Shown piece by piece: positions 1-61,296 of a DNA stretch of 64,000 nucleotides. The notes beneath the pieces are model-generated. The model had not been told where the DNA came from. It searched no databases and saw only the letters and a program-made list of their open reading frames with translations. The DNA is from Eledone cirrhosa (Eukaryota), in the NCBI GenBank assembly GCA_964016885.1, contig OZ024740.1, positions 95,356,001-95,420,000 on the forward strand. Direction: 5' to 3'. The position numbers were made by a program, and so were the translations under genes. How positions within the stretch are numbered: position 1 is the first letter of the stretch; each line of letters begins with the position of its first letter.

Positions 1-1001
1 AAAAATGAAACAATATATGAGAAAGAAAAAAATTGTGTTTAAATCAAAGAGAAAGTAAGAGAGCGGGGTTACCAATTATAAATTAACACTAGAGAAATAG
101 AAAACAAACATAGGTTCGCACATACGCACATATACATATAAAAACAATATATATATGAATACGTATAGGCAAAAGCGCATGCATACGTACATACATACTC
201 ACGAAGCACACACATATATATATATATCGGCACGCGTATATCTAAGCACACGTACGTACGTGACTATATATATACATATATGTATGTGTGCATACACACA
301 CATACATATATATATATACATATACACATATATACACATATTTATACACATACATTCACCTACATACACCCACTCGTATAAATCTAGATATAAAAACACA
401 CATACTCACACATATAGACACACACGCGCACACATACGGAGGCGCATGCACGCTCACACGCATAGATACAAATTATAAACCAGCCATATGAAAAAAAGAA
501 ATACAAATATATATATATATGTATATATCAGTGTCTTTTGTAAACTAAAAGCTGATGCTTTGAATAATATGATCACATAATTCATAACTTGCTAGCTTGT
601 TTGGATTCTGTATGTGCAGTATATTTATTTATATTTAAAAAAATCTGTATGACAATTAAATTCCTGCAATTAGTGCAATACGTCGAACATGAATAATTGT
701 ATTAATTCCACTTTTAGACGTTGTTCTATACTCTAACTTCTTTTGGTCTCTGGAGATACTCTCATTCAATTTAATTAATATTACCCCAGGGATTGTACCT
801 CGGATAATTTATTGTATAAACATATTGACCTTTAAATACCCTTGTCGTATCATACTAAATAAGTTTCTCAAATAGTTGAATGTTGTTATATATATATATA
901 TATATATATATATACTATTTGAGAAAGTTTGTTAGTATGATATGACAAGAGGATTTAAAGGTCAATATGTTTGGACTGGTGTAATTCCTTAAAGGTTTAT
1001 T

Positions 1002-1059
1002 ATACTATGAATATATCAATGACCGGGTTCAGTATAAATCCGGTGACATCATCACGTAT
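1002..1059 (-). ncRNA. Degenerate type I hammerhead ribozyme
   Basis: Minus strand reads atac-GTGATGA-tgtcaccgg..ccggtca-tt-GATA-tattc-ATA-gtat. Stems I, II and III are correctly placed. Two core positions are mutated (CTGATGA>GTGATGA, GAAA>GATA). Confidence 0.55.
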
Positions 1060-1596
1060 TCGAACTTTAACAAAGGAATGTAATCCAATGGGCTGAAAAG
1101 GCAGAGAGACAAGAAGGCGGCAACACATTTAGCAGTTTCTAGTTCGGTCGGCCACCTTCAAGTGAAGACTGCCAATTTATCTTATGTCTTTTCAAGGGGT
1201 GTAAGTTTTAAGTGTACTACTACCACCCCGTCACGGACAGAGGATAGTGGTGGGATCAGGTTACATTGAAGTTAGTCAGAAGTGCTAAAAAGTGCTAAGA
1301 AATATATTTTTTCCAAAACCATATATCTTCAACAAAACTATATAGAATGGATGCCTCCACAGTACATTTTTCATTGTAGGGTCAGAAATTACGATTAACG
1401 ATTAGAAATATGAAATGTATGTTTAGAATTAAAAGATGTCATTTAAGATGAGATTAGAAAAGTAAGATTTGGGTTTAAATTTGGGAGATTTAGTTAAATA
1501 ATTTACAGAAGGAGGCGTTTATGAAAAGGTTAAATGTATTATTGATAATAACGATAAAGTTTCCGGGTAGAATATAAAGTTAAGACTAAGCCCCTC

Positions 1597-2124
1597 TTTG
1601 GCGGTCAGTAACCAGCGACGTCACAGGCTCCCAGCCCACCCGGGGCCCAATGGCGTGTCAACCGTTCCGAGTATTTTCGTCTACCGAAAGAAAGGGAAAA
1701 TTATTTTTTCCGAGCACTCCAGGAATGTTAACTGTCTGAAGCGCCGAGGGCGCTAGCGGGAAACCCGCCACCGTCGGCTGATCATCGTGTACACCAAACG
1801 ATTCTTAGTTATTCACACTGGTGGGTAATTTAGTGAAAGGGCTAGTACATGGAGGCATGGTCAATTTTGAATTTATGATTAAGCCTAGAATTTAAAACTA
1901 CTGTTTGGCGGTCAATAACCGGTGGCACGGTGGATTCCAAGCCCTCCCAGGGCGCAAGGGTGTAACAGCCATTCCGAGTAATTTCGTTTACCGAAAGAAG
2001 GGGAAATTTATTTTTCCAAGCACTCTAGGAAGGCTGATCAACTCGAGCGCCTGGCGTGCAATCGGGAAAGTAGCCACATCAGTCGGATCATCGCGTGCAC
2101 CAAACGATTATTAGTTATTCACAC
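1597..2124 (-). repeat. Two diverged ~220-nt direct repeats (1597-1818, 1904-2124) forming a conserved multibranch RNA structure
   Basis: Shared blocks TTTGGCGGTCA, TTCCGAGTA, TTTCGTYTACCGAAAGAA, GCACTC and CACCAAACGATT-TTAGTTATTCACAC. The intervening stems differ in sequence but still pair. Confidence 0.8.
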
Positions 2125-3126
2125 CCGTGATGTGAAGTTTAAAAGTGGCAAAATCTGAAGAAATGGGTAAGAATACTATAATTAGTCCCCAGTTATCCCG
2201 GGTTATATATAGTGTGATTCCTGAGCGGGTATGGGGAGTGATTACATATAAACAGATATAAAGTGTACAGAGAATGATATTCTAGGGTCGTGTGCTAATT
2301 TTAGGTAACAGATAAGTACAAGGATAAGTATATAAGGAGAATAAAGTGAATAAATACATAAATAAAACATAAATAAAATGCAGTCATACCCAGGGTGGTA
2401 ATTGTGGGAGTAAAAATGGAAGGGAAAAAAATATCGAAGGAATCAAAATACAGAAGAAATAAAATACAGATCAAGGTGTAACAAATAAACAATAGATAAC
2501 ACGGTTGGAGAATACATGGTTATAAATATTGATATAGAGAATGGAAGAGTTGGAGTGGTATCAGACCATAATTAGTATAGGTTCGTGTCTTAATGTTCAA
2601 TGTGAATCCAAAAACCTTGAAATATAGGATAGACAATTCAGTCAATACAATACAGGGTATAATAGAATATGTTGATTTTTTTAAAGAATCTGTGAGGTCT
2701 GACGGTATTTGAGTGTTCCGGACAAGGAAGCAGCAATGCATGGTCCGGGTGGGCGGTAGACATAGCTTAATGCCGCCAAAATCCGAATGGTGTGCAGTTA
2801 GTCCCATATTGGCGACAAATGTACAGTGGAGCCAGGGCCCCTGTTCCTTACTACATCTGGAAGCGCTCGACATTTCCTGGAGGTTTTATACATTTAGGCT
2901 GTTGGTTCACCATTGGATAGAACTGGTCATTCCGTATGGTCAACCTAGATGTAATATTAGGGAGGGCACTCGACGTAATGCAACTTACCCGTCTAAGTTT
3001 AAGTTGTTGGTGGTGCGAGTACGGAATTAATTATTATAAAATAACAGGAGGCTGGACTGGTGTAATTCCTCAAAGGTTTATTAAACTATGAACCCGTTCT
3101 ATCCAGTGGTGAACCAACAAAGCTAA

Positions 3127-3172
<46 letters not shown>

Positions 3173-5594
3173 TCCGTAACAATTCTACTTTTGAAAAGCA
3201 TAGGAATTGTGAAAGGTATAAATATTTTTTCTTAAAAAGACTCCAGTTGCATTTCCATTTTCTTTTCCTGGATTGGTTATCTTGTTTTTTTTTTTCTTAA
3301 AAAAAAAACATCATTCTCTTATACATATATGAGAAGAACAAAACCAATATATATATGCAAAACCTTAATGTGCTGTTTGTTTCGCGATAGTGATTGTAGA
3401 TGATTATGTGTTTTAAATTATCCGAAATTTTTATTTCAACTGGAAAATTGAAAGTGCAGTGACAGATATGATTAGAAGGTTAGACAAATAGATTGCAAGG
3501 AAGCGCCATTTCATGATTGTTCTTTTTATGACTGGCATACCGTTGGGTGGGTCTTTCTAACACGGTGATGAAATGAGATCTAACATTGGTAGTTTTGTGT
3601 GTGCAAATAGAGTGGCTTTTTTTCGTGTGCATATCATTGATGTGGAATGTCAACGTTGTGTGTGTGTTAGAGAGAGAGAGCGAGATTTGTGTATCGTTTC
3701 GTATATAAACCCTTAATGTTTGTTGTTTGTTGTGCATTTTTTGTGAAATTATGTAAGCCTGTTTGTGTTAGTGGGCAGACATTGATGATATCGTTGTGCG
3801 TCTTTGATTGAGTTTATGTGTTTATAAGTGTGTGTTTATTAGTATGTGCATATTAGATTCTTTAAGTGTGTATGTAAATATGCTTGTATGACTGGCACTA
3901 TATGTGCGGGTGTGTGTGTCTATCAAATGAGAATACTGTCAGGCAAACAGAACATATGATCAAAGTATTGTTCAAATATCATTGTTATTTGATTTCCACA
4001 AACAACGAATTATGGTGTAAACATGGAGATATTTTCCACGTGTTAAGTGTCGATGTAATAAAGAATTGATATTAAATGATTAGTCACTGGTAGAATAATG
4101 TTTTGGTATGAAAAAAGAGAGAGATTTCTGTTTTCCTAGTTCAATGTTGTTAGTCATATCACATCTATAATGCACAGTAAAATGTAAAAAACCGTATTTT
4201 GTAATGCTTTTGTAATTATTTTGTAATGCCCAATTTGTCAAACTCAGATTTGTACATAATATGTATCATATGCGCCTACACAGACTGCGATCTTCTTGTG
4301 CAGGTACTATCATGTTATAGATATATCCTAAATATAACTGATAATGAGACACATTTGCGTAATCATTGCCTAATTAATATCTAATATATCTTAATTGTAC
4401 ATTATGGATATTTTATAACATAAACAATTCAATTTGAATACATAAACTTCATTTAATCTTCCTTTTAATATACATATATATTGAAACAAAGAGTACTTCA
4501 TTAATCAATATTTTAAACGGCTACAATCGATATATTTTTTTAAAAACCTTTGATTTGTATGGAAGTTCCAATATATACTCGTTTTATCATCTCAGTAAAT
4601 TTAGTAATTAAATCTGTCCAGAGATTATTTAATTCAATGCTAAACTTTCGTTCTCCTTTTACAGATCTAATATCTTCCACTCACCGTGCTTCACTTGATA
4701 TACTAATTAAGATGTGACTAATGCTTAGTGATGAATGAAATTAGAATGTTAGAATTTTATTTCTTCCATTCACAGCTACCGTGGACTAATTTTATGAGGA
4801 AGGAAAAGAGTTTTAATGAAATGTGTTGATATTTAAGGTAAACTGATGTTTAGTGCATTGTGGAAAAGAGAAATTTCCTTAGTTGTAAAACATCAACAAA
4901 TTAAATTAAAGCACTTAAAATATTATTGACCAAGTGGTTAGAACGTTATTTTCTCTTCCATTACCTAAATGTCACACTCTGCTACTATGGTTAAATTATC
5001 TTTGTGGCATTATACGCGTTCTATTTTTATTATTGCGATATAAATATTACCCTTCGGGAAATGTTCTGTTATTTTGTACATTTATTTCATTTTATTTTAT
5101 TTTTATGTGGAGGCATTTTTGTTGACAGGCGCAATTTCACACTGCTGTTTTATTTACATCAATTCTCAGCAAATTTTCTATGAAATTATTTCGCATTGTG
5201 AGGAAGCAATTAAAACAATTTAAGATTTTCTTTCCCCTATCACATCTCTTGTTATTAATGTCAAATCACTGAGACAGATTTAATTTTTTTAGACAATTAT
5301 GTGCATATAAATTTGATTTATTTTCTTTTCATACATGTGCAAATACTGTCAAAGACTTTCTTTTTTAATTAGTGCTATATGTGAAAATGCCTACATTTAT
5401 TGTTTTGAAAGTCTGTTGTAATGTGTCACCATTTCGAAGTTTTGAAAATAGCATTTGTAGCCAATAACATATTCAGATTTGTACCATCCATCACGCATCA
5501 TTAATATGCTATTTTTAGTGAAAGAGTGTTTTAGAATAGATCATGTTTATTGGACATCTGTTAATATTGCATGTAATATAGTGATTATATTTAA

Positions 5595-8225
5595 TCTCTC
5601 TCTATATAAAATTATTTGTCTCTCTGTCTGTCAGTATGTTCCGAGGCATTCTTCAACGTTTGGACCAAAACAAATCAAATTTTACAACGGTATTAGACCA
5701 AAGGAGTGTCAACATGTATGTTGTATTTTCATTTGGATTAGAACAATATGACATTTTATCTAATATAACCTTTCTATAGTGAACTATAAGAAACGACCAC
5801 GACCGCTACGACGATGAGTCACATTTTGTATATGAGTGTGTATGTGTATGTGTTGGCGAGTCCGTTGCGTACGTTAGACCTCAGAGAATTAAACTTACAC
5901 ATACATATACGCATTATCTTCCCACGCCACACACATAGTAATATGTCTGTGTGTTTATGTTTTAGTATATTTATGTGAGAGTGTATGTTCATGTGAAAGT
6001 GTATGTTTGAGTGAGTGTATGTGTGATTTTTCTCATTTTTAACGTCAAGCCTCAGAGAATTAAGCGTACACATTCATCTACACATACAGATACATATGTG
6101 ATGACAGCCAGTTGTGCGTGAATGTCTGTCTGTCTGTGTATGTCTTAGTATATGTATTTGAGTCTATGTGAGAGTGTATGTGTGTGCAAGCAAGTGTGTG
6201 TGTTTGTGTGAGTATATGTGTGTGGAAGTGTATTTTCATTTGGAAAACACAACGATGTCTCCTTTTGTATATGAATATGTATGTGTCTGTGAGTGTGTAT
6301 GTGTGCACATTTATTACATACTTTATTAAATACACACACACGTCTACACATTTGTCGCGATCGACTAAAAATGAGGTGAAAAGTTATGCCTGTCTCTGCG
6401 TGAATATATGTATGTATGTGTCTTACATCAAAACCCTTAAGAATAATAATTCATCAGGTATGGGTGGCGTTTCTGCTGAAATGCTGAAGACAGGAGGCGA
6501 AAGCATGGTTAAGTGGACGGGACACCTGTGTAATCTTGTGTGGAACACGGGTGAAGTCCGAGAAGACTAAAGAAACGGAGCGGTTGCCTGTATCCCCAAG
6601 AAGGGCAACCTTGACTATTGTGACAACTGGAAGGGAATGACACTTCTCTCCATACCAGGGAAGGTCTATTGTCTAGTGATCCTGAACCGCATGCGTGGCA
6701 TGGTAGACCGGGAACTGTGAGAACAACAGGCAGGGTTCCGACCAAAACGTTCCTATGCAGAGCAGATATTTCCGCTACGCCGCATCATTGAGAGGTACAA
6801 CGAATTCTAGAGGCCCTTCGCCATCAGCTTCATCGATTTGTCCAAAGCTTTCGATAGCATTCATCAACGTTGCTCTGGAGCATCATGCATGAGTATGATC
6901 TGCCCCAGAAAGTCATTTCGGCAATCAAACATACTTACGCAAACTCCAAGTGGTGCTTATGGACAAAGGATGGTTACAGAGACTGGTTTGAGGTGGTTAC
7001 TTGCGTGCGTCAAGGTTGCTCGCTCTCTCCAATTCTCATTGCCATAGCCATTGACTGGGTACTAAGAAGAGCGTCTAAAGACCAGGGTATATCTTGGGTG
7101 GGAGAGCAAATGTTGTCTGACCTGGACTTTGCGGACTATATTGCTGCACTTGCAGAGGGCACAGCTGACCTGCAAATCATTGTGAACAATATCAATGTCG
7201 AAGCAGGAAGCTTAGGTCTCAATATCAGTGCCAGGAAGACCAAAAGCCTGTTATCTGGGACACAGCCACCACCAACCATTGTCTTCATTGAAAAGGGGGA
7301 AGAGGAGATAGTGGACAACTTCACCTACCTAGGAAGCTCCATAACAATGAGGGCATCATCGACAGTGAACTGCAATGTAGAATGGGAAAGGCTTCAGCAG
7401 CATTTAACCAGCTTCACAAGACCTGGAAGAGCAGGAAGTTCGCCCTCAAAACAAAGATGAGATTCTACAACAGCAACGTGCTGTCCACACTCTTGTACAG
7501 AACTGAAACAAGGCACCTTAAGACCAGCCAAGGGAAGAAGTTGGACGCATTCGATTCCAGTTGTCTGAGAAAGATCCTGCGGATTAAATGGAGTGACCAT
7601 GTAACAAACCAGGAAGTGAGGAATCGGACCAACCAACAGCTAGTCTCTTCTACCATCTGCAAGCAACGCCTGGGCTGGTTTGGATACGTTTCGAGACTCC
7701 CCTTGGAGAGACTGGCGAACCAAGTACTTAAATGGAGTCCGCAGGGAAGCAGACGGTGAGGCCGACCCAAAATGAACTGGCGCCAGACAGTTGAGAGAGA
7801 CCTGCGAGCGACAAACAGACAATGGCGGGACACTGTGCAACTGGCTGCTGAACGAACGCGATGGAACACTATGATTGCCGCATGTGTCGCAAGGCGCGGG
7901 AGTTTCTGAGTCTGAGAGTGCCTGCGTGAATATATGTCTGTGTGTGCCTCAGAGTGTATGTATGTGAGTGTGTAGCAACAATTTATTCATTTGGACACCA
8001 ACAAAATATTATATAACGAATATTGTTTACCCCAAGATAAACAATATTCAAGATTGACAGATTTTCATTCTAAATTCTATTAACATTACAATTTTGATAT
8101 TTTAAAAATACAATATAGATATTCAGAAATAATTATGAGAAAAAAAACTCATATCTTGGTTTTTATTGTTTATTAATCTGAATAAGAACAGCAGTAATCC
8201 CGGCAACGCGGAGTAATTCAGTTAG
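5595..8225 (+). mobile_element. Probable non-autonomous Helitron, interrupted by an RTE LINE
   Basis: 5' end TCTCTCTCTATATAAAA..TGTCTGTC. 3' end has GC-rich hairpin-like CCCGGCAACGCGGAG followed by AGTTAG (degenerate CTAG). Internal GT-rich subrepeats. Confidence 0.5.
6430..7915 (+). mobile_element. 5'-truncated, frameshifted RTE-clade LINE (RT to C-terminus)
   Basis: Motifs SAEMLK, TLLSIPGKVY, EQQAGFR, FIDLSKAFDSI, VRQGCSLSP, LDFADY, FTYLGS, RLGWFGYVSR and GRPK. TCTGAG-repeat tail. Possible degenerate TSD CTGCGTGAATATATGT at 6396 and 7922. Confidence 0.9.
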
Positions 8226-16105: not shown

Positions 16106-17271
16106 TTATGGAGGATAAGTATCTGAAAGTGTGTTAAGTTTATATGAGCTGGAAAGCAGGTGTGATTTCATGTGTGGGCAACTGGTGAAAATTTCCGTCT
16201 TTGTGTTCAGGCAGGTCTTTGGTGATTTAAGATTTTGCAATATCCAACATTTTTCATTTATGCAGAGCCTGCATTTTCTTGTTCCTCTAGCATATTTTTT
16301 AGATTGGTTCAAAATTGACCAATCTAGTTTATATTGGATGCCTTGGTCTTTCAAATCCCAAATTCTGCTAGCCAGAGCTGTTGTAAATCTTTTTTCTGGA
16401 TGTCGAAAGCATGCGACATGTGAGTAATAACGCGTTTTGAATCTGTCTTGCGTCATACAGTCATATCGTTCACTGGTGGCTGGATGGTTGTTGCTGATGG
16501 TTGTCACTTTAGCCGCATATACCATGGCTTTGGTGTTGCATTTACCTTGTAATGGGCATTCACTTTTGATTCTACAGGAGCAAGTTTGATTTTCTCTAGG
16601 TGATATTTTGTTGAGGATATAGGACTCAATAGGGGGACCGCAGGAATAACTAATTTTAACACAGTTTCTGTTAAAGATCTTATAGTATCTATGTGTTCTA
16701 GGGAAATTTTTATCTAGGAGTTCTAGGAATTTTTTGCCTACATTAGTTTTAACTGCTAGAGAGTAGGGGGGTGTTAACCAGATTATTTTTCTTTTCCTAT
16801 TCTTATGTTTAATAGAGTTAGTGTAGTTAGGTATGTATTTAATCGGTTCGCTAAAGCCGCTATTTTGGAGGGCTTTATTATAGTAGGGGGATGCCTTATT
16901 AAACATAGCTTCTGAGGAAGAGAGGGTGGAGATCCTACGGCTAATATTAGGGATGAGGTTTTTAAAAACTATAGGTGGATGGCAAGATCCTTTATTTATA
17001 TATTTTAAGTTTTCATTAGGTTTATGGTATGGTTTATAAGAAGCAGTAGGCAAATCTAGGTTTATATCTAGGAAATCTACGTTGGAAAGTTTAGTGTCAA
17101 TAGTAATTTTAAGATTAAAACTAGCGAAGGTTTTTATTAAGTCTTTCCTTAATCTATCTAAGTTATGGCCTATGGTGGTATGGGAAAGTATTAGACCATC
17201 ATCGGGATAAAGCCCAAAAATATGGTTAGGAAATTTTTCTTTAAGTGTATGTAAGAGGAATAGGCCGACCA
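16106..17271 (-). pseudogene. Inverted partial copy of the same PLE ORF
   Basis: 391-aa ORF near-identical to the + copy. YRDD>YPDD and YVG>YDC. Retains the C-terminus SCPHMKSHLLSS. Confidence 0.92.
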
Positions 17272-18741
17272 TTAAATACACACATTAGAAGTAAGTCTAA
17301 ATTACTCCAATGGATAAATAGCTCTTCCGTAGTACATTGGTTTAATAATATTAAAAACAAAATCAGTTCTAGATTCACCCAATTTGACATCGTATATTTC
17401 TACCCATCTATTACTCAGACCCTTTTAGTGAAAGCTTTAAATTTTGCTAGAGGGTTCACTAATATCTCCGATATTGAAGAGGATGTCATCTTGCATGCTA
17501 GGAACACTCTACTTGTTAATGATAATGACACTTGGGCAAAAATATCTAACCCAGAGAACCCATTCGATGTCTCAATGGGCTCTTATGACAGTGCCGAGGT
17601 TTGTGATCTGGTCGGCCTATTCCTCTTACGTACACTTAAAGAAAAATGTCCTAACCATATTTTTGGGCTTTATCGCGATGATGGTCTAATACTTTCCCAT
17701 ACCACCATAGGCCATAACTTAGATAGATTAAGGAAAGACTTAATAAAAACCTTTGCTAGTTTAAATCTTAAAATTACTATTGACACTAACCTTTCCAACG
17801 TAGATTTCCTAGATATAAACCTAGATTTTCCTACTGCTTCTTATAAACCATACCATAAACATAATGAAAACTTAAAATATATACATAAAGGATCTTGCCA
17901 TTCACCTATAGTTTTTAAAAACCTTATCCCTAATATTAGCCGTAGGATCTCCACCCTCTCTTCCTCAGAAGCTATTTTTAATAAGGCATCCCCCTACTAT
18001 AATAAAGCCCTCCAAAATAGCAGCTTTAGCGAACCGATTAAATACATACCTAACTACACTAACTCTATTAAACATAAAAATAGGAAAAGAAAAATAATCT
18101 GGTTCACACCCCCCTACTCTCTAGCAGTTAAAACTAATGTAGGCAAAAAATTCCTAGAACTCCTAGATAAACATTTCCCTAGAACACATAGATACTATAA
18201 AATCTTTAACAGAAACTGTGTTAAAATTAGTTATTCCTGCGGTCCCCCTATTAAGTCCTATATCCTCAACAAAATATCACCTAGAGAAAATCAAACTTGC
18301 TCCTGTAGAATCAAAAGTGAATGCCCCTTACAAGGTAAATGCAACACCAAAGCCATTGTATATGCGGCTAAATTGACAACCATCAGCAACAACCATCCAG
18401 CCACCAGTGAACGATATGTGGGTATGACGCAAGACAGATTCAAAATGCGTTATTACTCACATGTCGCATCCTTTCGACATCCAGAAAAAAGATTTACAAC
18501 AGCTCTGGCTAGCAGAATTTGGGATTTGAAAGACCAAGGCATCCAATATAAACTAGATTGGTCAATTTTGAACCAATCTAAAAAATATCCTAGAGGAACA
18601 AGAAAATGCACGCTCTGCATAAATGAAAAATTTTGGATATTGCACAATCTTAAATCACCAAAGACCTGCCTGAACACAAAGACGGAAATTTCTCACCAGT
18701 TGCCCAAGCATGAAATCACACCTGCTTTCCAGCTCATATAA
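17272..18741 (+). pseudogene. PLE RT-GIY-YIG ORF, 5'-truncated, frameshift near C-terminus
   Basis: QFDIVYFYPSI, MGSYDSAE, GLYRDDG, VDFLD, linker CSC-x5-CPLQGKC, IVY...YVGMT and CTLC..EK. Confidence 0.93.
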
Positions 18742-28900: not shown

Positions 28901-28945
28901 AACGGTGCTGATGATAGCTAACAAGCTTGAAACTAGTACATCGTT
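28901..28945 (+). ncRNA. Minimal type I hammerhead ribozyme, unit 1 (intact)
   Basis: aacggtg-CTGATGA-tagctaacaagctt-GAAAC-ta-GTA-catcgtt. Palindromic stem III ACTAGT. Confidence 0.9.
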
Positions 28946-31601: not shown

Positions 31602-34600
31602 ACCAGTATTTTTTCCCCCTGGTAAAATGGTGTACATTATTCGATTTTTTCAGTAAAATCGGTTCTCTTAATAGAACATCAAAAATCTTAACGATAAAAG
31701 GTGTGAAATGATATTCTTTATATATATATATACACACATACATATATTCACTATATACATATATATATATATATACACATATATACATATATATACACAT
31801 ATATATGCACATATATTTTTTTGTGTTGCACCATAGAGCATGTGTGTTTACGTATGTCATTGTGTTTATATGTGGGTAGAGATGTGTGCTGATGTAGGTA
31901 TGTATGTTGACGTGCGTATGTTGTACTTTCGTCTTAGGGAGAAGTGTTTAGACGGGGTCCATATTTGTTAATGAAGTTAGATTCCTTGATGATGCGCTGG
32001 GTGTGGGTGGCATTATCTTTAAATTTGTAGAGGGGAAAGATTCTGAAGTTGGGATGATTTTGGGCGGCACAGGTATTTTGTTCACTCAGTGGTATTTTCC
32101 TGTATTCCCGTATTTTAATTTGGGATCTATGGACAGTCATGCATTGGCGGAGGCTGATTTTGGTCTGGCCTATGTATTGTTCTGGACAACCTGAACAAGT
32201 TAATACATATATTAGATTTTCCGATGCACATGTGAAATTGTGTTTTACTATAAAACGTTATCCATCTTTGAAATAGAATTCCGAACCCTTTATTAGGCTG
32301 ATGCAAATGCCACAGTTGGGTCTATCGCATTTTTTTACTGTGAGTTTCGTTGTTGTGGTTGGCAGTACTTTGGCATGTGTTAAGATGTTTTTCATTGACT
32401 TGGATTGTCTTTTGCTATTTATGATATCGTGTGTTCGTAGAATTTGGTTCATTCTATGGTCCTTTTTTATTACAGGGATGTTCTGGAGGATGGTGTCAAA
32501 GGACTCATTGTTGAGGGGGTTGTGTGTGGAGATGTATGGAAGAGCTTTTAGTTTTGGTTGATTTACTTTAGGGTGTCAAAGGTCCTGGGTACTGAGTTTT
32601 AGGGCACGTTGGATTCCATTGTCAATTAGTGATGCAGGGTAGTCCCTGCCTATGAGTGTGTCCTTTAGTTCTTGTAGCCGTAAGTAGCAGATGTTTTTAT
32701 TGGAGACTATAGTACAGATTCTTTTGGCTAAGTTGTAGGGAATATTAATTTTAACGTGTCTGGGGTGGCAAGAGTTGATGGGATACCTGGAAATCACCCT
32801 CTACACTAAAGTCCTAAACGAATTTGGAAACACCTTCTACTTACACATTGAAAGGAACTGGAAGCGATATCTAGATGACTGCTTCATCCTTTGGCACGAA
32901 AACATCGAAAAACTTAAAGAATTTCACACCCTTATAAATGGGCTCAACACAAATATTAACTTCACGATGGAATGCAGCCATCAACAACTCCCCTTCCTCG
33001 ACATCCTCATTAATATCCATAACAAAAAATAAAAACAGACATATACTACAAGCCCACAGACTCCAAGCAATATCTCCCCTTCAACTCTTGCCACCCCAGA
33101 CACGTCAAAACTAATATTCCCTACAACTTAGCCAAAAGAATCTGTACTATAGTCTCCAATAAAAACATCTGGTACTTAAGGCTACAAGAACTAAAGGACA
33201 CACTCATAGGCAGGGACTACCCGTCATCACTAATTGACAATGGAATCCAACGTGCCCTAAAACTCAGTACCCAGGAACTTAGACACCCTAAAGTAAATCA
33301 ACCAAAACTAAAAGCTCTTCCATACATCTCCACACACAACCCCCTCAACAATGAGGCCTTTGACACCATCCTCCAGAACATCCCTGTACAGAAAAAGGAC
33401 CATAGAATGAACCAAATTCTACGAACACACGATATCATAAAGAGCAAAAGACAATCCAAGTCAATGAAAAACATCTTAACACATGCCAAAGTACTGCCAA
33501 CCACAACAACGAAACCCACAGTAAAAAAATGCGATAGACCCAACTGTGGCATTTGCATCAACCTAATAGAGGGTTCGGAATTCTATTTCAAAGATGGACA
33601 ACGTTTTATAGTAAAACACAATTTCACATGTGCATCGGAAAATCTAATATATGTATTAACTTGTTCAGGTTGTCCAGAACAATACATAGGCCAGACCAAA
33701 AACAGCCTCCGCCAACGCATGACTGTCCATAGATACCAAATTAAAATACGGGAATACAGGAAAATACCACTGAGTGAACACATTGATACCTGTGCCGCCC
33801 AAAATCATCCCAACTTCAAAATCTTTCCCCTCTACAAATTTAAAGATAATGCCACCCACACCCAGCGCATAATCAAGGAATCTAACTTCATTAACAAATA
33901 CGCACCCCGTCTAAACACTTCTCCCTAAGACAAACCCATAACATACACACGTCAACATACATACCTACATCAGCACACATATCTACCCACATATAAACAC
34001 AATGACATACGTAAACACACATGCTCTATGGTGCAACACAAACAAATATATGTGCATATATATGTGTATATATATGTATAGATGTGTATATATATATATA
34101 TATGTATATAGTGAATATATGTATGTGTGTATATATATATAGTGAATATCATTTCACACCTTTTACTGTTAAGATTTTTGATGTTCTATTAAGAGAACCG
34201 ATTTTACTGAAAAAATCGAATAATGTACACCATTTTACTAGGGGAAAAAATACGGGTCCACCCACACACACACATATGTACACACACACATACACACGCG
34301 TACATCAACATACAAAGAGACTTATATACACACACACACACACACACACACGCGCACTTCTCCGTATAAGACAAAAGCTGAAAAATATCTTTTGACGTGC
34401 TAAAATGCCCCCCATTGCTTTCAGACACATTCTTACTGACCATCCCTGCCACCACGAATTACTCTGCTATATACACACACACACACACACACACACGCTT
34501 ATCTCAATAGCCATTTGACACACATCGCTGCTTACCATTATCACAACATCGAACACCTTACTACTACTACTAAACACACACACACACACACACACACATA

Positions 34601-35229: not shown

Positions 35230-37110
35230 AGGACTGGCGTAGCAGCATCATCGTTATATGTTACAAGGTTAAAGGAGACGCCCTAGATAGGAGTAACTAT
35301 AGAGGCATTAAATTAATCGACCAGGTCATGAAGGTCAGGTAAAAAGTAATAGCGCAACTAATCAGAGAGAAAATTGATCTAGATCAAATGCAGTTCGGGT
35401 TTGTGTCAGGCAAAAGTACCACAAACTCTCCTTTCATTGTACGACAACTACAGGAGAAGTACCTAGCTAAAATTAAACCCATATACTTAGCTTTTGTCGA
35501 CTTGAAGAAAGCCTTCGACAGAGTCCCCCGTTCCATTATCTGGTGGGCTCTTAGAAAACTAGGTGTTGACGAATGGCTTGTGAGAGTTATACAAGCCATG
35601 TATAAAGAAAGAGTCAGCAAGGTTTAAATTAACAACGAATATAGTGAAGAGTTTAGCGTAAAAGTTGGTGTCCATCAGGGCTCTGTTCTTAGCCCCCTAC
35701 TATGTATTATTGCCCTTCAGGCTATAACAGAGGAGTTCAAGACGGCTGCCCATGGGAACTCCTATACGCAGATGATCTAACGCTCATAGCTGAATCAATG
35801 GCCGAGCTAGAGAAGAAATTCCAAACATGGAAGCACGGCCTAGAATCAAAAGGCCTTAAAATTAACCTGGCTAAGACTAAAGTTCTAGTTTGTAGGAAAG
35901 AAAATAAGGCGCCGGTCCCTTCCGGGAAATGGCCATGCTCAGTGTGTAGGAAAGGCGTAGGTAGAAACCCCATTTTATGTCCCAAATGCAAAGTATGGGT
36001 GCATAAAAGATGTAGTGGGATCACAGGTAAGCTAACTAAGAACACAGATTTTACATGTGGCCGGTGCAATAAGTAGCAGCAAGTGCCCACGAAATACTAG
36101 CTCTTTCAATTGCGCAGAGGGTTCTTTAGAAATAGTGGACAGCTTCCGTTACCTGGGTGACAAAATCAGCAGTGGGGGTGGGTGCTCCGAAAGTACAGTA
36201 GCTAGAGTAAGAACTGGATGGAAAAAGTTCAGAGAGCTTATACCACTATTAACCGCTAAAGGGTTCTCCCTAAAAATGAAAGGCACGTTGTATGATGCCT
36301 GCATACGAACAGCAATGTTGCATGGCAGTGATACCTGGGCATTGTGTGCAGAGGATAAACGCAGACTAGAGAGGAACGAAGCTTGCATGCTCCGCTGGAT
36401 GTGTAATAGTAATATACGTGAACGGCAAAGCATAAACGAACTAAGGAAAAACATAGAAATAAGAGGGATCAGATGTTGTTTACTCGAGAGAAGGCTACGT
36501 TGGTATGGTCACGTGATGCGCATGAAAGACGACATCTGTATAACAAAGTGCAGGGCAATAAAGATAGATGGTAGCCACGGAGTAGGCAGACCCAGAAAAA
36601 CCTGGGACAAGCTGATACATTCCGACCTCACACACTTACACCTCTCCAAGAAAATGTCACTGGACCGAGACCTTTGGCGGTACTCAGTAATAGAGAAGAC
36701 CCGCCTTACCTAAATACAAAGTGAAACCTACTACAATCAGTAGGCATCTCTAACAAAATACACCCCCGTCCCATTACCCCCACCCCATCCACACCGCCCC
36801 TTTCAATGTAAAGTTATGTTGGTGCCACAACATCCAGGCCGAAACAAATGAGATCGTGTAGGTGTCACGACAAAAAAACACACGGTCCACGCTGTAATTT
36901 GGCCGTGTAGGCAACACGGTAAAAACCTCCCAGTTCCACACTGTAAATGTGGTTGGTGTTAGGAAGGGCATCCAGCTGTAGAAAACCCGCCAGACAGTCC
37001 TATGCGAGCAATACAACCACTCTTGCCTCAAGTGGGAAAACTCCCGTCCAAACCCATGCAAGCGTGGAATATGGACGTTAAACGATGATGATGATGATGA
37101 TGATGATGAT
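35230..37110 (+). mobile_element. 5'-truncated RTE-clade LINE with a Cys-rich finger in the RT region and an (ATG)n tail
   Basis: NYRGIKL, QFGFVSG, FVDLKKAFDRV, VHQGSVLSP, LLYADDL, FRYLGD, RRLRWYGHVMR and GRPRKTW. Tail GATGATGAT at 37084-37110. Confidence 0.92.
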
Positions 37111-38170: not shown

Positions 38171-40483
38171 AAGGAGACATGATATGAAAGTTAAAATACA
38201 CTTGTGAATAGTGCAGTCTTAAATCAACATATGAAAAGTAATTTAAGATTGATGTGTGATATTGGGAAAAAACGAGGGGAGGGGCGTTGGAAAGGATGTA
38301 AAAGAGGAGGAGATGAGAGTAAAGAATGGTGGGGGGGATTATAATATGGAAGGATGAGATAGCAGGAGAGATGGGTGATAGAAAGAGAGAGATAGCCTTT
38401 ATAACTGAGAAAATATATTGTTTCACAGAGAGAGGTTAAAAAGCCGTTGGAAGATAATATATAATTTAAAAGAATTTGAAAATTGATGAAGAGAAAAAAT
38501 TTAATGAAGAAAAAAAAAAAATTAAGAATAATGTTAAATTAAGGTTTGTATATTGAAGGGTTTAATTTATATGTGCGATGAAAAGAAATTGTTAATATGT
38601 ATTAAGAATAATATTAAATTGAGATTTGTATATTGAAGGGTTTAATAATATGTGCGATGAAAAGAAATTGTTATATGTATTATTAAAATAAAAAGATTAA
38701 TGTTATTAAGCATATAATGTGAAAAGAAGTAGAAAAGTGGATACATTATGAATTTATAGGTATTAGTTAGTGTTAAGTTTGTTTTATGTAATGTAATATG
38801 TATGCGTAATATATGTAAATAGTTTGTTTACAAATGAGCGCAGAAACAAAGAAGAAAATAGTGTTTAAGGAAGAGAAGACTCTAACAACAAAATATATAT
38901 GTTTATGAAGTATTTCCTAATGGTAATAATATAATATAATGTAATAAAGGAGATTAGTTAGGGTTTAAGTTTGTTTTTATGTATTATGATATGTAATTGT
39001 AAAAGTTAGACGAGCATGAAAGGGAGTAAACAATATAATGAATTGAGGAGGAATAATCTAACGTCAAAAAATGATTATGTATACGAAGGATTTTTAAAGG
39101 TAATACTATAAAGTATTTAAAAGGTAATAATACGTTTTATGGTCAATGATATGAAGGAAGAAGGAAGAGTGGGTATATTGCGGTGAGTAATAATAAGAAT
39201 TGAGAAGTATCTAGGAAGAAAAAGTACAGATTAGAGGTTAGTAATTAAAGGAAAAGAGGAAGAAAGGGAATTGATAAATAGGAATGATATAGAATGAGTA
39301 ACTAGTGTTATATAATGTATAATAAATCACATTAAAATAAGGTAGAAAGATTGGTATATTTAAAGAAATATATATATATGCCTTTGAGAAAAAGGATTTT
39401 AATCTGGTAAAGTATTACATATTAGCTGTATACTTTATGGAATGTTCTGTGGAATTTATGCAAGCAGAGAGAAAATAAGTCAGTGCGTCTATTTATTATG
39501 AAATCTAAATTAGATATAATGGTAAATCTCTACCATAAACAAAGATTACATGTTTTGGATAGAGAGGCATTCAAGTACAGAGAGACAGAACAAACTTTCC
39601 TCCAAGAGATGTTATAGTTAATACCTTTGTCTTTCAAGGACCATACGAGTTCTGAGAGTGCTGTGTTGCTTCTTTTAAGTTGGTACTTAAAAGAAGAATG
39701 GTGATTATAAACACGGGCTTTGAAGGAGGTGGAAGTGGAGGCAAAACAGGTAAAGGAATTGGTGTGCGTTATAACTTTACATTCATAGATTAAGTTTGTT
39801 TCAAGACAATGGTTGTTGAGAGGACATTTATTTTTAACAGGGCAATTACAATTGCGATTAGAGATATTAACAGAGTTATTAACAAGTGACCTAGTGCTAT
39901 GTATAGGAGGAATTGGATTGGAGAAGTTATTTACTATAGGAATAATAGATTCCTGATTTAGATTGGTATTAAGAACATTTGACGAAGTAACGTTTTACGT
40001 CGTATCTGGGTTTGCAGAATCTAGCCTAGAGTTAACAATGACGTCGGGGTTCTACTGCTATTATTATGACATTCAGTGTTGGAAGGAAGTGATTTAGTAT
40101 TTAATATTTTATTGTTGTGTTTGAGATAACTTTCGAGATGTTGGAGGAGGTGGAATAGGAAAATGTTATAGTATGTTTGTTAAATATTTTACGATAGATA
40201 TGTAAGGGAGGGAAGCATTTATGTAGGGCACTAAAGAATAATTTAGGAATATTATTTTTCATAAAGATGGAGAAAGGAACATTATACCACATTATATTTT
40301 TGTATCTAGGCCTTTTATTAAAGTTATTGGAATGATCATAATTAATTATTTTACTGTAAGATCTTCTAGGATTGGTTTATTTACTGTATTTGATTTTATC
40401 AGAATAACCGGCTTTAGATGAGAGGTTTGATATTCATTTTCCAATATTACTAACTATAGCATGTTAAATGTCTAACTTACATT

Positions 40484-42230
40484 TAAGTTAGACATTTTCT
40501 TATCCACCTCCTCTAATTGGTCTACTTTCTAACTTAAATTTATGGTTTGGTACATCTGAAGTAATTGGCTGGTTCAACAACTTGAATAAGAAAAACAAAC
40601 AAAAATGTATTCAATTTGATATTGAATACATTTTTCTATTCTTCTATTTCGCTCTCACTTCTCAACAATGCTCTATATTTCGCTTATAAATATTCAAACA
40701 TCACCACAGAGGAACTTCACATCATTCTCACCGCACGTAAAACCATCTTAGAATTCAACAATGAATACTGGACTAGAGCTGATACCTCCAACAACTTTGA
40801 CATTACAGTGGATGCATCAGATTCATCCCAATTGACAGATTTAATTGGTATCTTTATTTTAAACTCTTTGTATCGGAAAATTCCACAACTTCGCGGTGGA
40901 ATTTATCGGGATGATGGACATTTTACTATCATAAATTGCAACATAGTTAACCTTAATATTAGTAAGAACAATATACATGATCTCTTTAACGAACATAACT
41001 TAAAAATAGAATTTGATAACAACGTCAAACTAGCTAACTTCTTGGATATATCCCTTAATCTTGACACTGGCCTATATTACCCTTACCATAAAAACAATGA
41101 GAATCTAAATTATGTTAATTTTAAATATAAGCACACCACTAACATTAAAAATGCTATAGATAGTGTAATTGAAAAAAGAATATCAAACCTATCATCTAAT
41201 AAAAATATCTTTGATGCTAACGCCAATTACTATAATAACGCGCTTTCTAAAGCCGGTTATCCTGATAAAATCAAATACAGTAAAGAAACCAATCCTAGAA
41301 GATCTTACAGTAAAATAATTAATTATGATAATTCTAATAACTTTAATAAAAGGCCTAGATACAAAATTATAATCTGGTATAATGCTCATTTCTCCATCTC
41401 TATTAATAATAATATTCCTAAATTATTCTTCAGGGCCTTGCATAAATGCATGCCTCCCTCACATATCTATAGTAAAATATTTAACAAACATACAATAACA
41501 TTATCCTATTCCACCTCCTCCAACATCTCCAACATTATCTGTAAACACAACAATAAAATATTAAATACTAAATCACTTCCTTCCAACACTGAATGTCATA
41601 ATAATAGCAGTAGAACTCCCGACGTCATTGTTAACTCTAGGGTAGTTTCTGCAAACCCAAATACGACGTCAAACGTTACTTCGTCAAATGTTCTTAATAC
41701 CAAACTAAATCAGGAAATTATTATTCCTATCGTAAATAACTTCTCCAATCCAATTCCTCCTATAGATAACACTAGGTCACTTGTCAGTAACTCTGTTAAT
41801 TTTTCTAATCGCAATTGTTATACCCCTGTTAAAAATAAATGTCCTCTCAACAATCTTTGTCTTGAAAAAAACTTAATCTATGAATGTAAAGTTATAACTG
41901 ACACCAATTCCTTTACCTGTTTTGGCTCCACTTCCACCTCCTTTAAAGCCCATCTTTATAATCATGATTCTTCTTTTAAATACCAACTTAAAAGAACCAA
42001 CACAGCCTTCTCGGAACTCGTATGGTCGTTGAAAGAAAAAGGTATTAACTATAACATCTCTTGGAGGAAAATTTGTTCTGCCTCTCCCTACGTGAATGCC
42101 TCTTTATCCAAACCATGTTAAATTTGTTTATGTGATAAATGTACCATTATATCTAATTTAAATTCTATAATAAATAGACGCATTGACTTATTTTCTCTCT
42201 GCTTGCATACATTCCACAGAACATTCCATA
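40484..42230 (+). pseudogene. Decayed PLE RT-GIY-YIG ORF (includes ORF 40616-42121)
   Basis: IQFDIE, GGIYRDDG, NFLDI, YPYHK, C-x-x-x5-CPLNNLC (CNC retained in the left arm), LIYECKV and LVWSLK. Confidence 0.9.
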
Positions 42231-52957: not shown

Positions 52958-53006
52958 TATTCTACAGGACTAGAACTGTTTCATTCATTAGAAATCATCA
53001 GGAATA
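52958..53006 (-). ncRNA. Isolated intact type I hammerhead ribozyme between two (TA)n tracts
   Basis: Minus strand: tattc-CTGATGA-tttctaatgaat-GAA-ACAG-ttctagtc-CTGT-A-gaata. Confidence 0.82.
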
Positions 53007-58489: not shown

Positions 58490-61296
58490 TGCAAATGTGC
58501 ATCTTCTCTGTTGTCCGCAGGTCTTGATAATTTCAGACTTCAGGTTGACCGTGTCATCTTTCAGTCTGACTATCTCCATGGTCTCGTGTAGGTATAATCA
58601 GTTCTTTCTACTTGCAGCCGAGTATGCCCTCGCATGCCGAAAGATAAACCATTCCAGGGCGTACGGAGTGCCTTGGTCTTTCAGGTCCCACACCAGGTCC
58701 GCTAACCTAGTGGAGTGCTTTTTGCTACGGTCCCTGAAGGAATTCGTGTGATTATACATCCGCGATTTAAAATGTCGTGCATGTTGCGCCGATGTACGTG
58801 CGATGCGCATTTTGGGTTCTAACCACACACTTGTATATCAGGTCCTTCGTCAGGCCTTTTCCCTGTAGGGGGCACTGTGTGCTCGCTCTGCAGTTACAAG
58901 TTCTGTTGTCAGTTCTTTCGCATATGATGTTTAGGCCTCGATCTGTTATGGCCATCTCAGGATTCTCAGGTTGTTGTGTCTCCGGCACGGTGGTCTCCCT
59001 ATGCCACTCGTTGCCTCCCGGCTTTGGATCATATCACCTCCACTGGCGTTTCAGCCGCCTCGTGTGCCGGGTTGTCATTTGAGGGCCGGTCTGGTTTGTC
59101 CTCCGCGCTCAATTAGACGGTTATTCTGTCGCTGCGGTTGACGGCCAATGCACGCCATCTTCACTGCGTTAGTTTAGCCATGTAGTCGGCCATGTTAGGT
59201 GGTGTGGAGAAGGAAAACTTCACCGTGTGGCGGTTGAAGATTTTGTGGTACTTGTTCGTCGGCGGTAAGCACTCATCCAACGCTCGGAAAAAAATGTCCT
59301 GGCACGTTGGTGCGTACATGTTTGGAGTAAGGCGCATTAAACCAAGTAACGGCCTTAGATATATTCCTTCGCGTGCGTGGAGTTGTGCTGGTGTGTCCTG
59401 GACCAGATGTCCGTACCATGCTCTGCCCAACCACAATTACATCTCATGTGCTGTCTCTATCTATGTGCCTGCTGTGGGCATCGGGGTTATGCCCTTCAGT
59501 TATTAAAGTATGTCGTTCTATGTTGTCGGGTATACATCTAGTGCCCTTAGGTCTATGTGATGCGGTTGTTGGTGCTGTACCACTACAACCAGGCCGGGTC
59601 TGCTCTCTGTCGGGTGCCACGGACGTACGTGCCGTTGTCCCCTCCATAGTACCAGTTGCCACAAAGCTTTCATTGTGCGTGCCAGGCCCATGTATCTGCG
59701 TACTGGTTGGTCTAGCTCCTATGGGTGCCTTTGTCCTTCCTACGGTCGGTCCTGTGTCATTATTGTTAGCTGTGTTGCTATTTATGTTCCTAGAGACTGC
59801 AGCCGGGTCATTTCTTCTACCTCCGGAAGCGCCCCCTCCATTGCCGTTTCTGCACGCCTCATCCCTTGGCTCTTCCCTGTCCGGGTATACAGTATGGTGT
59901 ATGTGTAACTGGCTCTGCGCAGTGCCTTATTATAATATTCGGCGTGCTGTTTAAATACGTCTGCGTTCGCCGACAGGGTGGATACGCGTTTGGATACCCC
60001 TTTAACTATAACTCCTATGACTGACTTAGGGTGATTCGATTGCCTCTTCACATATTGCAGGTTCTCGTTGGACTTGTGATACTGTCGGTGGATGCCCTTA
60101 TTCATTTCCAAAGTAACGTCCAGGAAATTGACCGTCTTAGCGCTAGGATCTATTGTCACGGATAAGCCGTGTTGTTTGAAAAAAATGCGATATGCGCTTC
60201 CTCATACGCTCCATGTGGCTGGGGTTTAGAGAACGGAAGGTGAAAAGTGCGTCGTCTCTGTATATCCCCCCGCCGATCCCCGGGATCTCCTCCATTAACC
60301 CATGAATGAGATATATCGCCACAAGGTCGCTCACATGCGCCGAGTCGCTTAACGCTATGGTGATATCGAAACTGTCGGGTCTGTCCCTCCTCTCCCATAA
60401 CTTGTCTTCGAATCTAATTAGCGTCTTTCTGGCTGCTACTATGAGGTTGGTCCCCTCCCTAGTGAGGCTAGATCTGGCCATGGTGCTTATGAAGGCCTTA
60501 TTGACTAGTATCGGAGATACCGACGCGTAATAGCTATCTATGTCTAACTGAATAAAATATACTTGTTGCTTGTTACCTACTAACGAGAACGAGTCAATTA
60601 CCTCCTTAGTGGATGTCCATAGGTTAAGCCTAGTTTTGTTTCTAAGTACCGGTAGTATCCTGTTATGATATTCTTGCTGGTCCTGCCTAAGTTAGATTTT
60701 GAGGGTGCTATTAACCTAACCGGTAGTTTAGTTCTAAAGTCTAATTTACGGTCCTTAATAGATTTCCGTGGTTTTCTAGGTACATATACCTCGATCCTAT
60801 CATCTAATCCCAGCCGCGTCAGTATATCTTTTGTCGTGGCGTTAATATTATATAAATGTGTCTGTCCTGTGGTCCTATAGTTTCTCCTACTCTCCTTCCC
60901 GAGGCAGTCGTTGTATTTAAAACGGTCAATCATGTATACATTACCAGTTTTGTCCGTAGGCACAAGTAAATCCCGGCATTCTTCCATGCTTTTGATAGTG
61001 GAGTGAGGCTCTTGAGGTTCGCGGTGCACTATTCCTATGGAACTTGATTTTACGAACTATGTTGATTATACGATTTTCAAATTATTCCAGATCTGCGTTA
61101 TGCGGCGGGTTTTGTCTCGATCTAAATATCCGCTTTAAGCGGTCCTGGGGTGTCGGATGCGTGTTGTTGTGTCCTCCTGTCGTGGAGAAAAGCGTCTGAC
61201 TAACGAGTTGGTGTGGTATATGAGAAGGCCCATGTACGTGCTGTCAGACGGTATCGGTATGTCTTTCAAGGAGTAAGAGTAATTGAATGTTTCCAT
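58490..61296 (-). pseudogene. PLE RT-GIY-YIG ORF, many frameshifts
   Basis: METFNYSYSLKDIPIPS start, DKTGNVY, RLIAPSKSNLGR, GGIYRDD, VNFLDV, KIFNRHTVKFSFS, TCNCRASTQCPLQGK and LIYKC..TYIGAT. Confidence 0.9.

Follow-up and report, generated by a model that had tools for sequence, protein, structure and literature searches.

Animal non-LTR retrozymes are non-coding, low-GC repeats that carry a type I hammerhead and tend to form tandems, and Penelope-like elements (PLEs) have been proposed to mobilise them (PMC7229834; bioRxiv 10.64898/2026.07.22.740005). Their typical monomers span 150-450 bp (PMC7229834), and those of the 2026 preprint, where the period is limited to 1,000, span 51-972 bp (bioRxiv 10.64898/2026.07.22.740005). 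The portions of these two sources drawn on here name no cis element beyond the hammerhead. Hammerheads are also found in the pLTRs of PLEs, chiefly of the Hydra clade, which form partial tandems with inverted 5' pieces and target (TA)n; as described in the cited sections, these hammerheads combine a long stem II with a short stem I and a palindromic stem III, and two fixed 3' ends, one of them AC-rich, lie past them (PMC4209133, PMC8557442, PMC11167929). Finally, non-autonomous Chlamys PLEs such as MRC1 form pLTRs as well, but their 3' end resembles that of the helper, their clade is without canonical hammerheads, and an internal domain goes unmentioned in the cited part of the source (PMC8557442).

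The element described here, found in a window of 64,000 nt (the whole stretch of DNA that was analysed), is an unusually long, new variant among non-coding PLE/retrozyme-like elements. It shares with retrozymes its lack of coding capacity, the type I hammerhead motif, the low GC, the tandem tendency and a proposed mobilisation by PLEs; with Hydra-clade PLEs the partial tandems, the inverted 5' pieces, the (TA)n targets, the two fixed 3' ends and the layout of the hammerhead stems; and with the Chlamys PLEs the formation of pLTRs by a non-autonomous element. Unlike retrozymes, it has a unit of 1.7-2.6 kb rather than a short tandem monomer, its copies are mostly dispersed, 5'-truncated and inverted rather than arrayed, and it is predicted to carry a separate repeated structured domain. 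Unlike Hydra-clade PLEs, it lacks a reverse transcriptase (RT) and an endonuclease. The family extends retrozyme-like elements beyond 2 kb. No description of its domain was found in the published literature, and as far as searched the domain is undescribed; Repbase, Dfam and the supplements of PMC8557442, which lay outside that search, may hold the family unnamed. The fold given below is a prediction and the function a proposal.

The host element and its hammerhead

The initial annotation of this locus concerned a duplicated RNA domain. It overlooked the mobile element that hosts this domain, the hammerhead of that element, and the fact that the conserved part of the domain is a tip of ~60 nt. 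The element is laid out as follows.

1012-3092, minus: full unit of a non-autonomous, non-coding Penelope-type element, 2,081 nt, delimited by aligned family copies
972-1011, minus: first part of a further unit (pLTR overlap) that matches 3053-3092 at 95% identity
1002-1060, minus: putative type I minimal hammerhead with short stem I, core, long stem II with a U.U first pair, and palindromic stem III
2887-3052, minus: conserved stretch past the hammerhead, with both fixed 3' ends (~3032 and ~2887) within it, from alignment ends
3092-3167, plus: 42 nt of the element's 3' end in inverted copy, followed by (TA)n
818-972, no strand: inverted duplication of unique flank (818-876 and 914-972, 90% complementary) around a (TA)n tract

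The insertion anatomy of the family is that of Penelope-like elements. We find a pLTR formed by partial tandem, inverted 5' pieces (both common among the copies), variable 5' truncation, fixed internal starts of reverse transcription and insertion into (TA)n. An RT/endonuclease ORF is absent, as expected of a non-autonomous PLE: the 2,081-nt unit contains no long ORF, and tblastn of the unit against three PLE proteins returned nothing below E 1.9. In the window the insertion is bounded on one side by its own inverted 42-nt 3' end and on the other by the inverted duplication of unique flank, which is seen genome-wide at this locus only.

Because copies are truncated at variable points on their high-coordinate side, the minus strand is the sense strand. 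Among 29 copies picked independently of the domain, 5' ends are scattered from ~1307 to 2846; two apparent 5' ends at 1818, one of which is a single-domain hybrid, both continue as family sequence. At the unit start, 206 spanning alignments (a count in which overlapping loci may figure twice) divide into 89 that stop at ~3032, 72 that stop at the AC-rich ~2887 end, 24 that read through and 21 that stop elsewhere. TA repeats follow 85 of the 89 and 66 of the 72 (151/161 in total), and 2887-3052 is likely the region where reverse transcription starts.

The family runs to thousands of copies. They align over window positions 972-3092, and a first look at the element's own 3.0-Gb genome gave 876 candidates; in many of the 40 that were scored, both domains are present ~300 nt apart. 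Three exact head patterns matched the genome 457, 1,456 and 1,500 times (controls, including reversed patterns, 0). Distant kin within the genome were sought by these exact patterns, and the first 100 matches to each looked like the host family. The repeat, together with its tandem junction, is also found in three contig sets of one sample. From hammerhead to hammerhead, units measure 1,696-2,627 nt (11 measured, two of them repeat fetches).

Judged by its sequence, the family appears to have all that a type I minimal hammerhead needs: the core, stems I and II, a palindromic stem III and an NUH site. The predicted cut falls between 1006 and 1005. Two core changes make the window copy predictably inactive, and the CUGANGA and GAAA core is intact in 26 of the 33 family copies examined. 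A 22-nt hammerhead word has 5,750 exact matches in the genome (control 0), and none of the first 30 loci with this word has a PLE ORF within 1.5 kb upstream. Rfam gave no match over the hammerhead at gathering or relaxed thresholds.

Other small hammerheads occur in the window. A second hammerhead-bearing repeat, which resembles a classical retrozyme, lies on the plus strand near 28908, 29838, 30283 and 37622, and recurs at one family locus (L086); its stem II has the same U.U first pair and its tandem spacing is ~445-470 nt. A third minimal hammerhead family is represented near 53001 on the minus strand, beside a (TA)n tract.

Two domains with a conserved tip

Inside the unit lie two related domains, here called A and B.

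1903-2105, minus: domain B (first in the RNA), predicted rod and three-way-junction head, 203 nt, MFE z -2.48
1596-1799, minus: domain A (second in the RNA), predicted rod and head, 204 nt, MFE z -3.07
1972-2031, minus: head of domain B, in which internal conservation of the element peaks
1665-1725, minus: head of domain A
2106-2124, minus: 5' leader of B, also present at 1800-1818 before A and lost in some lineages

The two minus-strand copies announced by the initial annotation are borne out. Its closing words, TTTGGTG (1792-1798 and 2098-2104) and CGCCAAA (1597-1603 and 1904-1910), as well as the inner stem, the GAGT/ACTC pairing and both hairpins, all lie where it had placed them. Its size of ~220 nt needs splitting, since the folded units measure 204 and 203 nt and homology runs ~19 nt further 5', to 1818 and 2124. 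Over their full length A and B have 73% identity, which rises to 88% in the head and falls to 63-64% in the arms and to 51% in the spacer; both are GC-rich islands inside an AT-rich unit. After dinucleotide shuffling, 0 of 200 sequences folded as well as A and 1 of 200 as well as B. A 200-nt sliding scan in steps of 100 picked up the B region (z -2.2 and -2.5) and missed A, because its frame split the rod of A.

The predicted domain is a long, loosely kept rod topped by a three-way junction of ~60 nt, and the identical head appears in the MFE fold of 12/12 lineages. The arms are more complementary than the best of 100 shuffles in 10 of these 12 lineages, deletions notwithstanding, and G-U outnumber A-C apposals by 112:54 over the 12 (97:71 in shuffled arms, symmetric scoring), both counts coming from lineages that are not independent. 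Some lineages are short of 15-20 nt in one arm and are predicted to pair in a new register. The initial annotation's view that G-U pairs favour the minus strand is right in direction, but the bias is modest: the sense z lies below the antisense z in 6 of 10 lineage domains. The domain probably acts at the RNA level on the minus strand.

Genomic copies decay after insertion, and for this reason we compared lineage majorities. From 151 domain copies, 120 fall into 12 lineages of three or more, and 31 were left out. Over the 66 lineage pairs, identity amounts to 86% in the tip and to 57-60% in the arms. In five whole-unit lineage majorities the invariant fraction is 0.86 and 0.72 in the heads and 0.08-0.64 elsewhere inside the unit; the hammerhead surroundings reach 0.78-0.88, a figure that mixing of lineages in the pile-up may inflate. 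The nine pairs of the central head stems are invariant in 13/13 lineages, and variable head columns are concentrated in unpaired positions (15/24, against 8/36 paired; P 0.003; 13 lineage majorities). The changes that do occur in the head include one path from U-A through U.G to C-G and one G-C to G.U; its outer pairs tolerate wobbles, but several are broken in some lineages. Moreover, a run of 26 nt is invariant in 6/6 B lineage majorities, whose whole domains are 71-92% alike where measured. From these alignments the tip is, to all appearance, under clear selection. The loop of B's first hairpin (1997-2012, minus strand) reads AAUAAA, which might act as a hidden poly(A) signal, in all B lineages and is variable in most A lineages.

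Pairing in the rod is another matter. The initial annotation had read compensatory changes in the stems as selection on RNA structure. Between the two domain types, its inner stem contains one true two-sided change (A-U/G-C), and the rest are wobbles or mismatches; its second covarying stem mainly reflects a change of register. Our least circular test took the pairs of one lineage and looked for them in the neighbouring lineage. Of 226 pairs that had changed, 90 had stayed paired where 81.6 would be expected, a difference that is not significant (P about 0.10; 9 contrasts, each counted twice). Paired rod sites change somewhat less than unpaired ones (12% vs 18%, P 0.016). Fitted structures look far better: 42 hand-picked copies gave 88.5% paired with 17 pairs showing two-sided change (0/500 shuffles as good), and a count over fitted structure gave 27 kept vs 19 broken lineage states, 184 vs 297 private changes, and 82 G-U to 5 A-C. 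These figures are circular, the structure having been fitted to the same sequences, and we therefore give more weight to the cross-lineage test. Naive RNAalifold on 42 decayed genomic copies yielded a poor consensus with a covariation term of -0.33, and column-shuffled alifold gave z -4.7 for B and -1.4 for A. For the head, an alignment of 40 of 66 diverse copies showed no significant two-sided signal (91/500 shuffles as high); the head is too invariant to covary. Base-pair compensation in the rod is thus not above the neutral level. Taken together, the weak pair test, the complementarity of the arms and the G-U excess suggest that the rod probably persists as a stalk with loose pairing. The initial annotation had named three outcomes that would speak against it. 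The absence of significant covariation in a deeper alignment was found by half; neither a codon-like substitution pattern nor a strong Rfam match turned up.

The claim of an uncatalogued class holds as far as Rfam goes: there is no match over the domain at gathering thresholds, none up to E 10, and none up to E 1 at five loci of other lineages, the relaxed search returning microsatellite-driven miRNA noise only. A kink-turn has tandem G.A/A.G pairs beside a 3-nt bulge and a C-stem, and box C/D RNAs carry RUGAUGA and CUGA boxes. The kink-turn that had been suggested here is not supported as a key feature. There is no C-stem beside a 3-nt bulge, the GA/GA words occur in 8 of 12 lineages, a C occupies the place of the U of box C, the D-like word is mostly UUGA, and no snoRNA model matches over the domain. 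A tRNA scan found 0 tRNAs, and a B-box-like word is lost in most lineages; a tRNA-derived SINE head was rejected on the lack of a tRNA gene and of conserved A/B boxes. Naiad/SECIS, H/ACA, Pol III A/B boxes, IRE, IGR-IRES, 7SL, 7SK and MRP were likewise rejected for want of conserved features or Rfam support. A bacterial promoter scan, which is not applicable to this DNA, was at chance level.

Telomerase RNA is a further comparison: PLE RTs are sister to TERT, and CR4/5 is likewise a three-way junction that ends in a short stem with a 5-nt loop (PMC4993307, PMC11892584). The predicted head has a 3-5 bp stem and a 5-nt loop, against a 4-bp stem and a 5-nt loop in CR4/5; such a shape is generic. 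The resemblance breaks down at the invariant A between P6 and P6.1 given in the cited part of PMC4993307: it is absent, and the linker is pyrimidine-rich. Furthermore, unlike in telomerase RNA, the first hairpin has 5 bp only, and there is no template, pseudoknot or H/ACA part.

How often does the domain occur per element? Among 111 head groups, 59 are flanked by family sequence on both sides, and 52 of these have two heads and 7 have one. Of these seven, four occur sporadically, with a single domain or as B/A hybrids, and the others include a lineage without A. The 78 multi-head groups comprise 45 BA, 2 ABA and 4 BB, the rest being partly untyped. The BB lineage is nearest to a BA lineage (88%), which suggests that it lost A and then re-duplicated B. 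Two or more copies have thus been kept or regained, which suggests that having at least two tips is advantageous. On the other hand, the family duplicates other internal segments too, and the extra domain copies may therefore arise by mutation bias. For example, one lineage has internal tandem duplications of 220-240 nt, seen at locus L081 (3695-4151 and 5100-5565 in script orientation).

What the domains may do

For a non-coding PLE passenger there are three needs: transcription, survival and access to a helper protein. Our favoured reading, to which we give slightly less than an even chance, is that the domains are repeated modules whose three-way-junction tip is a protein-binding RNA handle, capturing the helper PLE protein in trans; recruitment of an RT, one of the candidate roles in the initial annotation, remains the leading idea in this form. 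A partial tandem would be read through by transcription and produce an RNA longer than one unit. The helper PLE protein, probably of the Hydra clade, would nick (TA)n DNA, and reverse transcription would begin at one of the two sites past the hammerhead. Because the element RNA encodes no protein, it would have to compete for the helper. The region where reverse transcription starts adjoins the hammerhead, and so the tips would presumably do something else: held out on a rod whose exact pairs are of little import, a tip would bind the helper protein or a nearby host factor, in the manner of the Alu domain, and two tips would strengthen binding through avidity or suit a dimeric protein.

A handle is favoured by the peak of conservation at the tip, by the RNA-like pattern of change in head and rod, by the retention of two heads and by the absence of the domain from 20 loci of the candidate helper. 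Against it stand the near-neutral covariation of the rod, the non-significant two-sided signal and the broken outer pairs of the head, the other duplications in the family, the 7/59 single-head copies, and the comparison with a single, mostly 5'-truncated helper family. The precedent is the Alu domain, which in the model presented in PMC11760393 gives Alu access to the L1 machinery. It is an analogy of working only, that of a folded, duplicated module gaining the RT of another element: the domain has no 7SL/SRP similarity, and its helper would be of a different class. In the anole PLE PAc, the protein is predicted to be dimeric, there are two internal RT start sites, one of them AC-rich, and the protein-binding region lies in the first 172 nt after the ORF start, beside the hammerhead, according to the cited sections (PMC11167929). 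By analogy, the corresponding hammerhead-side region here, ~0.8-1 kb from the tips, could be enough for capture. Possible, although on the doubtful side, is a bolder version: a new RNA class, namely a modular three-way-junction handle that arose in a retrozyme-like parasite of 2 kb and captures in trans a PLE RT related to telomerase (or the ribosome that makes it), an Alu-like solution evolved independently and paired because the protein is dimeric.

Conserved half-sites with variable spacers suit dyad-symmetric protein sites as well as stems, and the ~300-bp repeats might instead work at the DNA level as monomers of a promoter or enhancer, with the head as a dyad-symmetric cluster of factor sites and further copies adding strength. 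GC-rich islands in an AT-rich unit, the BA, ABA and BB arrays and the non-significant covariation are in line with this, and the domain would then be an ordinary parallel to mouse L1, whose monomers, as presented in the cited parts, are a precedent (PMC9022269, PMC6454616). Although this is the main rival of the handle, we consider it unlikely: RNA accounts more naturally for three nested inverted pairs within an imperfect inverted repeat of 80 bp, the arms have remained complementary despite deletions in 10/12 lineages, G-U are in excess on the transcribed strand, and the tolerated head changes include G.U wobbles on that same strand. Duplicated transport elements occur in retroelements, and binding of a host factor for the protection or export of an RNA that lacks introns and has hammerhead-made ends would explain the same tip conservation and the absence of the domain from the candidate coding helper. 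Stability or export elements of the triple-helix (ENE) type, for their part, have a paired U-rich internal loop, which the predicted fold lacks; no export or stability family of Rfam matches, and in PAc uncleaved RNA is the main template according to the cited section (PMC11167929), which leaves such a role rather unlikely.

A ribozyme had been among the candidates of the initial annotation. Novel self-cleaving or ligating activity of the head appears quite improbable, even for a compact, conserved three-way junction in a family already using a ribozyme. No known ribozyme model matches, a cut in mid-unit would destroy the template, and the scattered 5' ends of the 29 copies have no fixed break point at the domain, with the caveat that hammerhead cleavage likewise leaves no mark in PAc insertions. 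Absence of any function, the domain being a captured inverted repeat that was tandem-duplicated and kept alike by template switching or conversion, would fit the other 220-240-nt internal tandem duplications of one lineage, the B/A hybrids and the neutral rod, yet conservation limited to a 60-nt island, twice over, and the 26-nt invariant run in 6/6 B lineages make it very improbable. We give least credence to a role of the self-complementary GAGURCUY word in pairing two domains or RNAs, thereby favouring hammerhead dimers and head-to-head insertions. Both of its variable positions keep self-pairing, inverted pieces are common, and two head-to-head chimeras with the helper PLE exist; however, the predicted probability of B-A pairing is 0.0 in 5/5 lineages, forcing it costs 7-21 kcal/mol, and most transitions in the word would be tolerated anyway. 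Returning to the handle, the module is compact, well delimited, repeated and clearly under selection, and the family includes natural lineages with one, two or three copies of it. Since these coexist with a candidate helper in the same genome, the question of enzyme capture is testable.

Candidate helper and neighbouring elements

At two of 80 loci the family is joined directly and head-to-head, as a chimera, to one coding Hydra-type PLE family, and five more loci have that PLE family nearby. The ORF of the PLE family contains the CxCx5C linker known from the Hydra clade. Hydra-clade PLEs insert in (TA)n and have hammerheads, as stated in the cited part of PMC8557442, and a common target may be why the two lie side by side. 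Searching 20 loci of this PLE family, most of them 5'-truncated, with the head model gave 0 matches to the domain. Homology between the two elements past the hammerhead and at the ORF start is not significant, 20-98 of 200 shuffles being as good. The chimera junctions lie near 4664 of locus L094 (script orientation) and near 2440 of locus L003, and look as if two different RNAs had primed at one nicked site.

Relatives of the head were also sought elsewhere. Strict head patterns gave 0 matches in viral and metagenome contigs. A loose pattern gave 2 and 46 loci respectively, pre-selected by the pattern itself, the best scoring 29 bits against 88-99 for true copies; the top six are by eye one bacterial protein-coding stretch, and all were taken as chance.

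PLEs are present in the genome and in the window. A compact Hydra-type family has 4,542 first-look candidates that are 92-95% alike, with a 585-aa open frame in one copy (loci L130 and L126); in L130 the hammerheads are about 1,870 nt apart. Within the window, ORF fragments with Hydra-type motifs lie at 16106-18741, 39530-42121 and 59782-61056; Pfam named neither of the two that were tested. These fragments show the CxCx5C linker, a DKT word is found at 60598-61056, and the pair at 16106-18741 is head-to-head. Two 3' fragments of PLEs, inverted relative to each other and bearing a GIY-YIG domain (Pfam PF01541, E 3e-5), occupy 31934-33928, and RT-like fragments of RTE/L2-type LINEs, recognised by eye in the ORF list, lie at 6858-7759 and 35693-36713.
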